This document shows positions 9,588-15,260 of a DNA stretch of 37,056 nucleotides, piece after piece. This stretch comes from a virus, in the IMG/VR virus record IMGVR_UViG_3300042731_004196, positions 1 to 37,056 of that record. One strand, given 5' to 3'. The first letter of the stretch is position 1, and each line of letters starts with the position of its first letter. The notes beneath the pieces were generated by a model, which saw nothing but the letters and a program-made list of their open reading frames with translations, was not told the DNA's origin and did not search any database. The position numbers and the translations under genes are program-made.

Positions 9588-9823
9588 GCGATTCCCCCTT
9601 TGTCTTCCGCTCTACCTGTAACCTCCTCCCAGACGGCATACGCCATCTTCAGTCTCGCGTCGGAGTAGTCGCCTCGCAGGTGGTACCTGAGGGTGTTGGG
9701 CGATATGTCCAGCATGTGGTTATTCCGCAAGCGGTTAGCCATCAAATTTACTGCAACGTTCAGATTTTTCTGGGTTTCCGCCCAAGCTCGAAATAGGTCT
9801 AGCCATTCATGGTAATCTAGCAT
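9578..9823 (-). CDS. Hypothetical protein (81 aa), possibly DNA-binding
   Basis: First gene of the leftward unit from the 9855-9884 promoter. No firm motif. Confidence 0.6.
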   Translation of the reverse strand: MLDYHEWLDLFRAWAETQKNLNVAVNLMANRLRNNHMLDISPNTLRYHLRGDYSDARLKMAYAVWEEVTGRAEDKGGIAWA

Positions 9824-9854
9824 ATACTTTACCCCGTAGGTTAAGTGTGGGTTA

Positions 9855-9884
9855 ATCTTAACCTGCGTTACGTCTAACTGTCAA
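9855..9884 (-). promoter_or_regulatory. Leftward promoter TTGACA-18 nt-TAAGAT overlapping an AGGTTAAG/CTTAACCT inverted repeat
   Basis: TTGACA is the reverse complement of 9879-9884 and TAAGAT of 9855-9860. Inverted-repeat arms at 9838-9845 and 9857-9864. Confidence 0.5.
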
Positions 9885-12230: not shown

Positions 12231-12481
12231 AAAGCAAAATCCCGCCCATCGTGTCAGTGCTGCTCGGGCTGACGGAGGGCTCGTATGCACTGGCAGAGAT
12301 CATGTCTGACAAGGGGGTCAAGCCCTCCCGCGAGCAGATGTCCGAGGTGTTCGCGAAGCAGGCGGCGGTCCTGGAACACCTCACGGTCGTGTTGGCGCGG
12401 CACTTCGGGGTCTCCCAGACAGACCTGCTGAGGATGGCAGAGGGCGAGCCCGATCCTGAGACACAGGAGACCAAGCATTGA
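12221..12481 (+). CDS. Hypothetical protein (86 aa)
   Basis: ATG 12221 overlaps the SSB gene end. Its stop overlaps the polymerase start. Confidence 0.55.
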   Translation: MAVESKIPPIVSVLLGLTEGSYALAEIMSDKGVKPSREQMSEVFAKQAAVLEHLTVVLARHFGVSQTDLLRMAEGEPDPETQETKH

Positions 12482-13269
12482 CTCGCGTGCATTTCGATCT
12501 CGAAACCGCGTGCGACCTCGACCTCAAGCAGGTCGGGCTGACCAACTACGTCAACCACGAGTCGTTCCGCGTCCTGATGACCGCGTGGGCCTTCGACGAT
12601 GAACCCGTGCAGTGGGGCGAGGGGCTGGTGCGGTTCTGGGGCAAGCGCTGGCCCTCGACCTGGCACGCCTTCAACGTGCCGTTCGAGGCAGCTTGTCTAC
12701 GCCGCTACGGCGTGGGGGTCGCACTCCAGCTATGGCGCTGCACCCTGGCCCATTCCTACGCCCGCGGCTTCTCCGGCGGGCTGGACAAGGTCGGGGAGCA
12801 GGTCGGCATCGCGCAGGATGCGCAAAAGCTCAAGGAAGGAGGCCGGCTAATCAACAAGTTCTGCAAGCCCCGCCGGCCCAGCAAGTCCAATCCCGACCCG
12901 TATTGGACTGAGAAGACCGCCCCCCTGGACTGGGCGCGGTTCTGTGAGTACAACCGGCAAGACGTAGTGGCCGAGCGAGCCATCTGGTACGAGCTTAACA
13001 GGTGGCCCTGGACCCCTGAGGAGCAGCGCCTGTGGCAGCTTGACAGGGGTATCAATACTGAGGGGGTGCCCGTGGACCTTCCCATGGTGCGGAACGCCCT
13101 GAGCGTCGCTGAAAGGCTGTCAGCGGGCCTCGCGCAGGACTGCCTGCGGGTCACCGGCGGCATTGGTCCTGGACAGGTCCAGGCCCTGCTGGCGTGGTGC
13201 CGGGAGCGAGGTTACGAGGGGGAAGACCTGCGGGCTGGAACAATAGAGGAGGCGTTGAAAGGAGGTTGA
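12478..13269 (+). CDS. Family-A DNA polymerase, N-terminal 3'-5' exonuclease part (split gene, part 1)
   Basis: ExoI-like HFDLETA, plus YNRQDVVAERAIW (ExoIII-like). It ends at a TGA that overlaps the TTGACA of the insert promoter. Confidence 0.85.
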   Translation: MTRVHFDLETACDLDLKQVGLTNYVNHESFRVLMTAWAFDDEPVQWGEGLVRFWGKRWPSTWHAFNVPFEAACLRRYGVGVALQLWRCTLAHSYARGFSGGLDKVGEQVGIAQDAQKLKEGGRLINKFCKPRRPSKSNPDPYWTEKTAPLDWARFCEYNRQDVVAERAIWYELNRWPWTPEEQRLWQLDRGINTEGVPVDLPMVRNALSVAERLSAGLAQDCLRVTGGIGPGQVQALLAWCRERGYEGEDLRAGTIEEALKGG

Positions 13270-13294
13270 CATTAGGTTAATCCCAGGTTAAAGT
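13266..13294 (+). promoter_or_regulatory. Sigma70-type promoter TTGACA-17 nt-TAAAGT at the left edge of the polymerase insert
   Basis: -35 at 13266-13271 and -10 at 13289-13294. The spacer carries two AGGTTAA direct repeats (13274-13280, 13285-13291). Confidence 0.55.
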
Positions 13295-13430
13295 GACCTT
13301 ACACTGCAACCAGCAAATAGAAACGAAACAACCCCCAGCCCGGCGGGCGGCCCAAGGCCGATGGCCGGGACAGGTCAAGCGGGTAAGTGACCTGGTTCGA
13401 AATAACACCCGCAGCCAGGGCTCCGGAGCA

Positions 13431-13694
13431 CCCGGCTCCATTCGGCCCTCCTTGCCCGGAGGCCCTGGCATTTCAACCGACAGGAGATAGAGAAATGAAG
13501 CACATCATCATCATCGCCCCCCTCGCCCTCGCCCTGGTGGGTTGCGAGACGGCCCCCGAGCCCCCGGCTCCATTCGGCCCTCCTTGCCCGGAGGCCCTGG
13601 CATTTCAACCGACAGGAGATAGAGAAATGAAGCACATCATCATCGCCCCCCTCACCCTCGCCCTCGCCCTCGCCCTGGTGGGTTGCGAGACGAC
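13431..13694 (+). repeat. 132-bp tandem duplication (2 copies) covering the leader, SD, ATG and signal peptide of the lipoprotein gene
   Basis: The sequence from 13431 repeats from 13563. Copies differ by one ATC codon and extra GCCCTC units. Confidence 0.9.
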
Positions 13695-13857
13695 CCCCGA
13701 GCAGAGCCGGCGCACGGGCGCAGCTGCCCTGATGCTTGGCTCCCAGATGCAGCAGCAACAGCAGTCCTTCCAGCACCCACAGCCCGCGCCCCGGTATTAT
13801 CCGCGCAACACGCAGTGCTACCGGGTCGGCCACATGATCCAATGCCAGAGCTACTAG
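13627..13857 (+). CDS. Small lipoprotein (76 aa precursor; lipobox LVGC); in-frame alternative start at 13495 from the duplicated copy
   Basis: MKHIIIAPLTLALALALVG|C is a signal peptide plus lipobox. SD GGAGATAGAG. Gln-rich mature part with two C-terminal Cys. Confidence 0.7.
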   Translation: MKHIIIAPLTLALALALVGCETTPEQSRRTGAAALMLGSQMQQQQQSFQHPQPAPRYYPRNTQCYRVGHMIQCQSY

Positions 13858-13865
13858 GAGATAGA

Positions 13866-14069
13866 GTGAAAAAGTTCACCGCGCTCATCGACGGATACCC
13901 TGTCCGCTCCTACCTCGCGAGGTCACCAGGCGATGTCTATGCCTACGCCAGAAAATCTTTCGGGCCAGAAGGGCTCACTGTCCAGCAGGGAACAGGTTCT
14001 ACGCGCGATTGCCTGCGGGTGGAATACCCGGCAGAGGCCGGAGGGCCGCCTCGGTTGGCCAACACGTAA
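13866..14069 (+). CDS. Hypothetical protein (67 aa)
   Basis: GTG 13866 is preceded by GGAGATAGA, the same SD as the lipoprotein gene. It overlaps the 13933 ORF in another frame. Confidence 0.4.
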   Translation: MKKFTALIDGYPVRSYLARSPGDVYAYARKSFGPEGLTVQQGTGSTRDCLRVEYPAEAGGPPRLANT

Positions 14070-14145
14070 AGCCAATATCGCGCTCAGTGGGCTGCGCAAG
14101 CGGCGAAAGGCTCAGTGTCATGACGGTTGCTGGATCCTGCGGTGA
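13933..14145 (+). CDS. Hypothetical protein (70 aa), winged-helix-like C-terminal half
   Basis: REQVLRAIACG...GWPTRKANIALSGLRKR...GCWIL resembles a wHTH. Its TGA (14143-14145) overlaps an in-frame GTG 14142 of the polymerase part (GTGA). Confidence 0.35.
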   Translation: MSMPTPENLSGQKGSLSSREQVLRAIACGWNTRQRPEGRLGWPTRKANIALSGLRKRRKAQCHDGCWILR

Positions 14146-15260
14146 CCCCCGAGTGCCGGAAAGCCCTGCAGCTGCGCCTCGCCTATGCGCAATCTGCCAC
14201 CAAGAAGTTCCACGCCATCGACCGTCTGCAGCACAACGGGCGGGTCTACGAGACCCTGCAAGCCTGGGGCGCGAGCCGCACGGGCCGATGGGGCGGACGG
14301 GGGCTCCAGGTCCAGAACCTCAAGCGGCCCACCCGCGGGGTCGGGGACCCCGATCGTGCCGCCCAGACGCTCGCAGAAGACCCTGACCTGTTCGCCCGCC
14401 TCTACACACTGGAAGACCTCGGGAGCCTCGTCAGGAGTGCCATACGGGCTCCGGACGACTATAGCCTCGTGGTCTCCGACCTGTCCTCGATCGAGCCCCG
14501 CGTGCTGGGGTGGCTGACCGGCTGCGTCTGGATCAACGAGGTATTCGCCCGCGGCAAGGACACCTACAAGGCCTTCGCGGAAATGTGGCTGCGGGCGCCT
14601 TACGACGACGTGGACAAGCCAACCCGCGACCTGTGCAAGGGCCCATTCCTCGGGTTTGGCTACGGCATTGGGGCTGGCGGGCTGAAGACCTATGCGGAAG
14701 GCATGGGCGTGGAGATGTCCGAGGACCAGTGCGAGAGTGCCATCAAAACCGTGCGCAAGGTCTGCTACGAAGTGCCCCGGTTTTGGATGCAGATCGAAGG
14801 CTGCTTCCGCCTGACCGCACAGACGGGGGTGCCCACAGGCGACGGGCTAGGACTCCCTATACAGATGGAAGGGCGGTTCCTGACCATCCGCCTGCCGAGC
14901 GGACGCAAGCTGTACTACGACGCCCCGGAGGATGACCCCGAGGAAGGGCTGTCCTACATGGGGCAGAACCAGTACACCAACAAGTGGGAGCGGATTCGGA
15001 CGTATGGCGCGCGGTTGACGGAAAACCTCTGCCAGGCAATCGCTCGGGACGTCCTGGTCGAGGGGTTGTATCGCTATGCGGGCATCGGGGGCACTCTTAT
15101 CACGCATATCCACGATGAGGCGGTTGCGGTGGAAATCGAATGGGCTGCAGAAGACCGGCTCGCAGAGATGAACAGGTGCCTGTCGGAGCCCGTCCCCTGG
15201 GCTCCCGGCCTCCTGCTCGGAAGCTCGGGATACATCTCCAAGCGGTATCGGAAAGACTAG
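14127..15260 (+). CDS. Family-A DNA polymerase, polymerase domain (split gene, part 2)
   Basis: RTGRWGGRGLQVQNLKRP, motif A VVSDLSSIEPRVLGW, motif B KGPFLGFGYGIG, motif C HIHDEAVAV. Start is TTG 14127 or GTG 14142. Confidence 0.88.
   Translation: MLDPAVTPECRKALQLRLAYAQSATKKFHAIDRLQHNGRVYETLQAWGASRTGRWGGRGLQVQNLKRPTRGVGDPDRAAQTLAEDPDLFARLYTLEDLGSLVRSAIRAPDDYSLVVSDLSSIEPRVLGWLTGCVWINEVFARGKDTYKAFAEMWLRAPYDDVDKPTRDLCKGPFLGFGYGIGAGGLKTYAEGMGVEMSEDQCESAIKTVRKVCYEVPRFWMQIEGCFRLTAQTGVPTGDGLGLPIQMEGRFLTIRLPSGRKLYYDAPEDDPEEGLSYMGQNQYTNKWERIRTYGARLTENLCQAIARDVLVEGLYRYAGIGGTLITHIHDEAVAVEIEWAAEDRLAEMNRCLSEPVPWAPGLLLGSSGYISKRYRKD

Follow-up and report, generated by a model that had tools for sequence, protein, structure and literature searches.

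A putative two-gene family-A DNA polymerase with accessory DNA at the exonuclease-polymerase boundary of an uncultured tailed phage

Organization of the locus

The DNA analyzed here, positions 1 to 37,056 of the IMG/VR virus record IMGVR_UViG_3300042731_004196 (37,056 nucleotides (nt), one strand; this whole stretch is referred to as the window), is a nearly complete tailed-phage genome of about 37 kb and is identical to contig Ga0373606_0000022 of the Joint Genome Institute (JGI). Its family-A DNA polymerase (PolA) is encoded in two pieces. A 3'-5' exonuclease open reading frame (ORF) and a polymerase ORF follow each other on the plus strand in different frames, and between them lie 857 nt with stop codons in all frames, which carry a predicted promoter, a structured RNA motif, a hairpin and a small lipoprotein gene (Table 1). 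A first-pass annotation, made from the sequence of the window without database searches, had read the locus as a polymerase gene cleanly bisected by an 860-nt promoter-bearing insert. The ORF coordinates, the stop codons and the differing frames given there were all reproduced, and the -35 hexamer TTGACA of the predicted promoter indeed contains the TGA stop codon of the exonuclease ORF. The polymerase ORF opens just 3' of TGA 14121-23 and stands in frame -1 relative to the exonuclease frame. In the JGI gene call the exonuclease is shorter, with 260 amino acids (aa) from GTG 12487.

Table 1. Features of the split polymerase locus, with positions in the window
Feature	Position	Strand	Details
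3'-5' exonuclease (proofreading) subunit gene of the split family-A DNA polymerase	12478..13269	+	263 aa; start TTG 12478; stop TGA 13267-69
GGTTG, left copy	13264..13268	+	right copy 14125-14129; spacing 861 nt
Sigma-70-like promoter	13266..13294	+	TTGACA-17-TAAAGT; 10/12 consensus; -35 at 13266-71; predicted from consensus only
Proteo-phage-1 RNA motif	13333..13416	+	Rfam RF03044; 61.3 bits, gathering score 42; about 38 nt past the -10
Strong hairpin	13414..13469	+	inverted repeat directly 3' of the RNA motif; in minimum free energy and centroid folds; followed by AUUUCAA
Imperfect tandem duplication	13419..13690	+	132-nt period; 94% identity; 3-nt and 12-nt indels
Small lipoprotein gene	13627..13857	+	start ATG 13627; 76 aa; lipobox LVGC (LVG/C); also called by JGI
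Possible 67-aa ORF	13866..14069	+	GTG start; ribosome binding site (RBS) AGGAGATAGAG; doubtful; weak positive coding score fading past about 13945
Alternative 70-aa ORF (JGI call)	13933..14145	+	exonuclease frame; TGA overlaps GTG 14142 of the polymerase frame
Polymerase subunit gene	14127..15260	+	377 aa from TTG 14127; alternative start GTG 14142

Conservation of the two polymerase halves

Comparison with PHROG 17 ('DNA polymerase') gave E-values of 4e-28 for the exonuclease half and 5e-59 for the polymerase half, and the profile positions covered were consecutive (670-911 and 931-1232, respectively). The Pfam domain DNA_pol_A (PF00476) was found only in the polymerase ORF, at 14127-15257 (E 3e-11). 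In the alignment of stand-alone exonuclease homologues the residues D7, E9, E70, Y158 and D162 were invariant, and when seven split and three fused homologues of the polymerase were aligned, the same was true of motif A (D118, E123), motif B (R167, K171, Y179) and motif C (H329, D330, E331). Codon usage was strongly gene-like in both halves. An AlphaFold2 model with a predicted local distance difference test (pLDDT) score of 95 folds the exonuclease half confidently as a PolA-type exonuclease domain, in which an RNase-H-like core is followed by a helical region with its last helix at residues 253-262. The top PDB matches of this model were exonuclease parts of family-A polymerases (7pbk, 8oo6, Klenow), the enzymes concerned being phiVC8 DpoZ, E. 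coli Pol I/Klenow and phage G20c Pol I. Judged by these features, both halves look functional.

Removal of positions 13267-14126 (860 nt) yields an open frame of 640 codons that reads ...IEEALKGGLLDPAVTPECRKALQLRL, as had been annotated. This 640-aa fusion was collinear, in one piece (residues 4-640), with the intact PolA of chi-like, Smarc5-type siphoviruses, which has about 675 aa. The supposition that nothing is missing at the linker was thereby borne out, and the comparison with homologues that had been proposed as its check revealed no conserved segment between the halves that the window has lost. Since the fusion aligns as a single piece with intact PolA, the gene is very unlikely to be decayed. 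In a search of the fused protein against PDB sequences the match was confined to the motif A-B region, so the split site could not be mapped onto a solved structure. A megablast search of GenBank phages with positions 12478-15260 gave no match.

The split state in related phages

The best match in GenBank was Thiohalocapsa phage LS06-2018-MD04 (51% identity), in which two coding sequences annotated as 'DNA polymerase' are broken at the same linker, overlap by 28 nt and have no insert between them. A search with the exonuclease half, which covered 5.8 billion proteins, returned 36 relatives at 46-61% identity, all but one of them 174-290 aa long. About 35 relatives, at 46-58% identity, have the exonuclease as a protein of its own with roughly 260 aa; no exonuclease relative was found between this group and 100% identity. 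According to the alignment, the stand-alone exonuclease homologues end within a few residues after a common ...L.A.TI..xL motif. On the contigs where both halves are visible (exonuclease identity 47-57%; the loci carry L numbers here), the two genes are separate at the linker at every locus except L087 and L219.

The boundary itself differs from locus to locus. The genes overlap by 28 nt in L001 (Thiohalocapsa phage MD04), L006 and L220 and by 16 nt in L003, and L212 and L215 have overlapping frames. Short cargo of about 0.15-0.4 kb is present in five loci, consisting of an 85-aa ORF in L005, a 107-aa ORF in L088, a 65-aa zinc-ribbon-like ORF in L089, a 97-aa ORF in L211 and about 150 nt in L216. 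The cargo of L004/L007 measures 2.37 kb and has four ORFs, one of them with an IS110-type Transposase_20 domain, and in L218 at least 265 nt past the exonuclease stop, up to the contig end, are without a polymerase match. The cargo proteins showed no similarity to each other or to the insert of the window, and no homing endonuclease domain was found among the cargo ORFs of nine relatives. The 380-aa protein encoded at 3810-4949 of L004 (also in L007 and L217; IS110-family Transposase_20, E 1.3e-6) is the product of the sole recombinase-like gene noted at this hotspot.

Among distant IMG/VR relatives with at most 44% identity, 76 of 80 have one continuous gene. In a neighbour-joining tree of exonuclease domains all split forms fell into one clade and the fused distant forms outside it, and the window did not group with fused members. 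The loci L042 and L045 (34% identity) are split elsewhere, with a gap between the parts, which points to an independent split in another PolA lineage.

Locus searches of viral contigs and genomes gave no close relative, and a near-identical insert-free allele, which would mark the true insertion boundaries, was not found. An exact-protein look-up with the polymerase half returned no record and thus no alternative alleles. Two public contigs carry the same arrangement with the same exonuclease and lipoprotein proteins.

These contigs bear on the possibility that the locus is a decaying gene or an assembly chimera, in which case the split would be biologically meaningless. Such an artefact would fit the purely metagenomic origin of the data, the lack of a clear coding signal in the 3' 180 nt of the insert and the several frameshifts of one relative, L210. 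It is nonetheless very unlikely: all catalytic motifs have been kept, both halves show strong codon usage, the duplicated copies within the insert differ by indels and substitutions, as copies created in assembly would not, the arrangement recurs in the two contigs, and the split is found in many independent assemblies.

Gene junctions without an insert

In L001, L003 and L006 an ATG or GTG start of the polymerase gene lies inside the end of the exonuclease gene, 9-11 nt downstream of a GGAG that is encoded by the conserved AETI codons. To judge from these signals, the insert-free relatives would use ordinary translational coupling. Because the overlap is -1, a single-base indel can interconvert split and fused forms.

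The same geometry could be read as a sign that a fused exonuclease-polymerase is still made by programmed -1 frameshifting, as the polymerase is in the -1 frame in every readable insert-free locus (L001, L003, L006, L212, L215, L220). Moreover, the polymerase frame at L212 3777-3915 (the same as L214; also L215) has none of the codons ATG, GTG and TTG nearer than about 75 nt to the conserved N-terminus, a junction that would reflect a non-canonical start, a frameshift or a sequencing error. Against recoding stand the ATG/GTG starts and GGAG motifs of L001, L003 and L006, whose overlaps contain no X XXY YYZ slippery heptamer by visual reading, no dedicated scan having been run; between L001 and L006 the overlap sequence is not conserved. 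Furthermore, recoding cannot fuse the halves in the window and in at least six cargo-bearing relatives because stops are present in every frame between them, and a two-polypeptide enzyme would have to suffice there. A variant of this explanation, in which the cassette excises at the DNA level during infection, has to contend with a cassette that has neither a recombinase nor terminal inverted repeats. Only a very small probability was assigned to recoding or excision.

A two-polypeptide enzyme with a cargo-collecting boundary

Probably, the window encodes a two-gene family-A polymerase, with a 263-aa exonuclease and a 377-aa polymerase broken at the exonuclease-polymerase linker; the split is predominant in the clade, the boundary collects accessory DNA and nothing is spliced out. 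That the enzyme works as two polypeptides, which the first-pass annotation had offered as one of two ways out, is strongly supported by sequence comparison, as the same linker is split clade-wide, the halves are conserved and unrelated genes lie between them. The split most likely predates the 860-nt insert.

The exonuclease and polymerase products would be made separately, and a proofreading polymerase would presumably arise from their non-covalent association. Accessory DNA would accumulate at the boundary between their genes, which is empty in some relatives. In the window it would hold a moron-like cassette made up of a host-type sigma-70 promoter, a Proteo-phage-1 leader, a hairpin, the lipoprotein gene and about 180 nt of uncertain nature, and the -35 element of the cassette promoter would supply the stop codon of the exonuclease gene. 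This cassette was absent from all relatives examined. As there is no convincing terminator after it, transcription that starts in the cassette or reads through from the replication operon upstream should run on into the polymerase gene. That the subunits assemble, that the promoter is active, and what the RNA and the lipoprotein do are all predicted parts of this model.

Several observations weigh against this interpretation. L087/P0016 and L219 are continuous across the exonuclease-polymerase linker despite their clade membership (L087 lies inside the clade in the neighbour-joining tree, L219 was left out of the tree), so the split or fused state is labile, and the fused reading of the window, KGG-LLDP, resembles KLGGTDP of L087. 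The polymerase gene of the window has a weak Shine-Dalgarno (SD) sequence (-3 kcal/mol) and a non-ATG start, and coupling of the overlap type is lost. The clade is uncultured, and we infer the activity of the two-part enzyme from conservation alone. Finally, the cassette lacks two classic hallmarks of morons: no plus-strand terminator was detected in 13264-14129, and the codon usage of the lipoprotein gene equals that of the phage core genes (0.70 bits per codon; GC content at third codon positions 0.88) and is not foreign.

The polymerase of L087 (72-2193) is split instead about 110 aa further on, inside the polymerase domain; a 63-aa ORF separates its two parts. A second break point is therefore tolerated in the same enzyme.

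Origin of the junction

The claim that an intact gene had been cleanly bisected by the insert was not supported, since the split is the commonest state in the clade even without an insert and excision between the repeats does not restore the frame. The corresponding explanation, recent insertional splitting, supposes a fused ancestor in which the 860-nt cassette entered a tolerant linker by way of GGTTG microhomology or target duplication and so made two genes. Its attraction lies in the perfect in-frame fusion obtained when 860 nt are removed, with a linker KGGLLDP comparable to KLGGTDP of L087, in the presence of fused members within the clade (L087, L219) and in the stop codon provided by the -35 hexamer. 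It was judged unlikely, as most clade members are split at this point, the window is not grouped with the fused ones, and the repeat does not behave as expected.

GGTTG is present at both junctions, as the first-pass annotation had noted, and its reading as a target-site duplication or microhomology was not supported: the spacing of the copies is 861 nt and not 860, and a 5-mer common to two random junctions (within 6 nt on either side, in this window) was obtained in 7% of trials. With a chance level of about 7%, GGTTG is no evidence of target-site duplication. Excision bounded by the repeat would remove 861 nt and give ...KGGCWILR* with a stop at TGA 14143-45, that is, two overlapping genes and no in-frame fusion. 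There would then be a 19-nt overlap between the exonuclease ORF and the start of the polymerase, which would stand in the -1 frame; this geometry is that of the insert-free relatives. If the repeat means anything, it would fit an insertion into a junction that was already split. The insert tail was also considered as a decayed 3' end of the exonuclease gene (a 19-mer encoding DCLRV) and rejected, because other tiles of the window and 6 of 500 shuffles score as high in local alignment.

The alternative of removing the insert at the RNA level, by a self-splicing group I or group II intron or otherwise, so that one polymerase mRNA is restored, proved extremely unlikely. The exon-joined reading is in frame, and polymerase genes of other phages, SPO1/SP82 and the T7-like phage phiI, are known to contain group I introns. 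A T precedes the insert and a G ends it, as had been pointed out; the bases are there, and as splice-site evidence they prove nothing. The scan suggested in the first-pass annotation found no group I or group II intron family of Rfam in 13000-14400 on both strands at E <= 10, the sole significant match being Proteo-phage-1, and intron models did not match among the polymerase-clade relatives either. What the insert carries is a predicted promoter of its own, a small-RNA motif of a known family, a lipoprotein gene with adapted codon usage and a tandem duplication. Besides, the site lies in the linker and not in a conserved catalytic motif, and in the relatives it is empty or holds unrelated protein-coding cargo.

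An intein in the window was rejected because of the stops at 13267 and 14121 and the differing frames. In L089 (6506-7477), L011, L020 and L076 about 0.9-1 kb of extra sequence is present in frame after the equivalent of polymerase residue 176 or so, near motif B, which suggests inteins at a common site; Pfam gave no domain within the extra segment of L089. Neither Pfam nor PHROG matched a transposase, a recombinase or a homing endonuclease (HNH, GIY-YIG, LAGLIDADG) in the insert of the window, and no inverted repeat that pairs the two ends of the insert was found. An insertion sequence or transposon was rejected on these grounds, the GGTTG repeat being at chance level.

The Proteo-phage-1 RNA

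The Proteo-phage-1 motif is said to come from the 2017 screen of Weinberg and coworkers. Its match in the insert is full-length (model positions 1-82 of 82) with all pairs canonical, and it was the only Rfam match in the whole window at the gathering threshold. In an alignment of 24 family members, four of the five pairs of helix P2 showed compensatory changes. A pairing between loop and tail, GCCGG/CCGGC, is absent from the Rfam structure, and the copy in the window preserves it as GCGGG/CCCGC (13379-13383 with 13408-13412) through a double change.

A degenerate pattern search of IMG/VR yielded at least 119 Proteo-phage-1 copies (loci L090-L208), often with a terminator or a tRNA immediately upstream. 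Downstream of these copies comes a conserved hairpin. A cluster of ORFs that includes NinG lies upstream of the RNA in 76 loci, and in Pseudomonas phage phiAH14a this RNA follows NinG and one more gene and precedes the lysis/terminase genes, in the position of a late-operon leader. The RNA was also examined in L213 (3503-3592). The window copy shares the full-length match, the helices and the loop-tail pairing with the family; elsewhere, however, the RNA is a late-operon leader, whereas here it stands in the replication module of an unrelated phage, about 38 nt past a consensus promoter, which is an unusual context for Proteo-phage-1. Gene sharing between the window phage and other contigs with this RNA was essentially nil, and no Proteo-phage-1 RNA was found in the polymerase-clade relatives. 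In a full-text literature search the name Proteo-phage-1 was not found.

The hairpin that follows the motif could be an attenuator or a weak terminator.

A more far-reaching proposal is that the boundary is a dedicated landing site for cassettes and that the captured promoter and Proteo-phage-1 leader, an RNA found elsewhere in late-operon leaders of lambdoid phages, have been co-opted to drive or gate the polymerase subunit independently of the proofreading subunit. We regard this as quite improbable. If true, the phage could vary its ratio of exonuclease to polymerase and hence the fidelity or timing of replication, and it would be the first functional handle on Proteo-phage-1, as a promoter-proximal element of the antitermination or attenuation type.

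Protein-coding content of the insert

The lipoprotein gene is preceded by a strong SD sequence (-7.4 kcal/mol). Its three remote homologues are small lipoproteins with a C-terminal C-Y-x-x-G-x-Q-x-x-C-x-S-Y (C-x7-C) motif, and the protein possibly has a cell-surface or exclusion function. The tiny, unannotated family has members of 68-104 aa with the C-terminal motif R-x-T-x-C-Y-x-x-G-x-Q-x-x-C-x-S-Y, which is present twice in one of them. The 132-nt tandem duplication spans the leader of the lipoprotein gene, its RBS AGGAGATAGAG and the codons of the signal peptide. As the copies share one reading frame, translation from the upstream ATG 13495 would yield 120 aa with two lipoboxes.

The last 180 nt or so of the insert are of uncertain coding status. 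No homologues and no Pfam or PHROG match were found for the possible 67-aa ORF. The alternative 70-aa ORF has a negative coding score and is probably not coding; its tail, ...GCWILR*, is the reading of the exonuclease frame after repeat-bounded excision. This ORF was also considered as a translational coupler for the polymerase gene, which is unlikely because of the negative coding score.

Comparison with known systems

Split family-A polymerases with intervening ORFs are already known, and the present case adds a previously undescribed clade in which the cargo is moron-like and not endonuclease-based. In UFV-P2, a LUZ24-like phage, about 2.1 kb with ten small ORFs separate 'DNA polymerase part I' (3'-5' exonuclease) from 'part II' (PMC3890496). 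As in the window, the exonuclease and DNA_pol_A genes of the LUZ24-like Pseudomonas podophages (UFV-P2, LUZ24) are separate, on the same strand and with small unrelated ORFs between them, and these phages are cultured and viable. They differ in belonging to another PolA lineage, in a shorter exonuclease part (171 aa) and in the number of intervening ORFs (about ten), and no cassette of promoter plus Proteo-phage-1 is reported there. Split polymerases with a small ORF between the parts have been described for the OM43 phages MEP401 and MEP402 (PMC10580990), and a split family-A polymerase for an uncultured T7-like cyanophage lineage (bioRxiv 10.1101/325100). Like the clade of the window, both groups conserve the split across related genomes. 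They are unrelated to the window, and their authors left the mechanism open and suggested an intron; for the window, intron models were searched and gave no match.

In the 'genes in pieces' of T4-related phages (split nrdA in Aeh1 and split gp43 polymerase; PMC2988022; Friedrich et al. 2007 PNAS), mobile or accessory DNA likewise separates the two parts of an essential replication enzyme, which is reported to function through subunit assembly. There an intervening homing endonuclease is reported to explain the insertion, in contrast to the insert of the window with no endonuclease match.

The comparison with phage group I introns extends to an interruption of the polymerase gene by several hundred nucleotides and an in-frame exon-joined reading. 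The window differs in having no covariance match, a site in the linker, an own predicted promoter and relatives that are split without an insert.

Phage morons are exemplified by lambda bor and lom and by those of the HK97 type (Juhala/Hendrix), and bor and T5 llp encode small envelope lipoproteins. The cassette in the window shares with them an accessory gene with its own, here predicted, sigma-70 promoter, a position inside a conserved module, absence from relatives and a small lipoprotein as product. It differs in the absence of a clear terminator, the non-foreign codon usage, the structured RNA and a site that lies within a single gene of other phages.

Current understanding is not overturned by these results. 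They indicate that, in the clade related to Thiohalocapsa phage MD04, the proofreading and polymerase subunits mostly have genes of their own and that the boundary between these genes behaves as a cargo hotspot. For annotation pipelines and polymerase phylogenies this means that both ORFs should be joined, neither being taken for a fragment or a pseudogene. Natural examples of tolerated PolA split sites are found in this clade and may be of some use for enzyme engineering. The new genomic setting of the Proteo-phage-1 RNA, right behind a consensus promoter, gives a small hint as to what this orphan RNA family does.

Other features of the window

The terminase, portal, scaffold, major head and tail-fibre genes are located on the minus strand, as is the Prim-Pol primase gene. 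The plus strand carries the genes for a DUF2800 exonuclease, a Gp2.5-like single-stranded DNA-binding protein, the split PolA, a VRR-NUC nuclease and an SNF2 helicase.

The promoter of the insert (TTGACA-N13-AGGTTAAAGT) resembles the minus-strand promoter at 9884-9855 (TTGACA-N14-AGGTTAAGAT). The heptamer AGGTTAA is present in six copies in the window versus 1.5 expected, four of the six in these two promoter regions: a direct pair at 13274-13291, in the spacer and -10 region of the insert promoter, and an inverted pair at 9838-9864, between divergent promoters at 9800-9884. A phage regulator may use it as its operator, or it may be a common -10 context. At 2339-2500 near-perfect sigma-70 promoters stand back to back in opposite directions (12/12 consensus positions on the minus and 11/12 on the plus strand), and this segment looks like a regulatory switch region.

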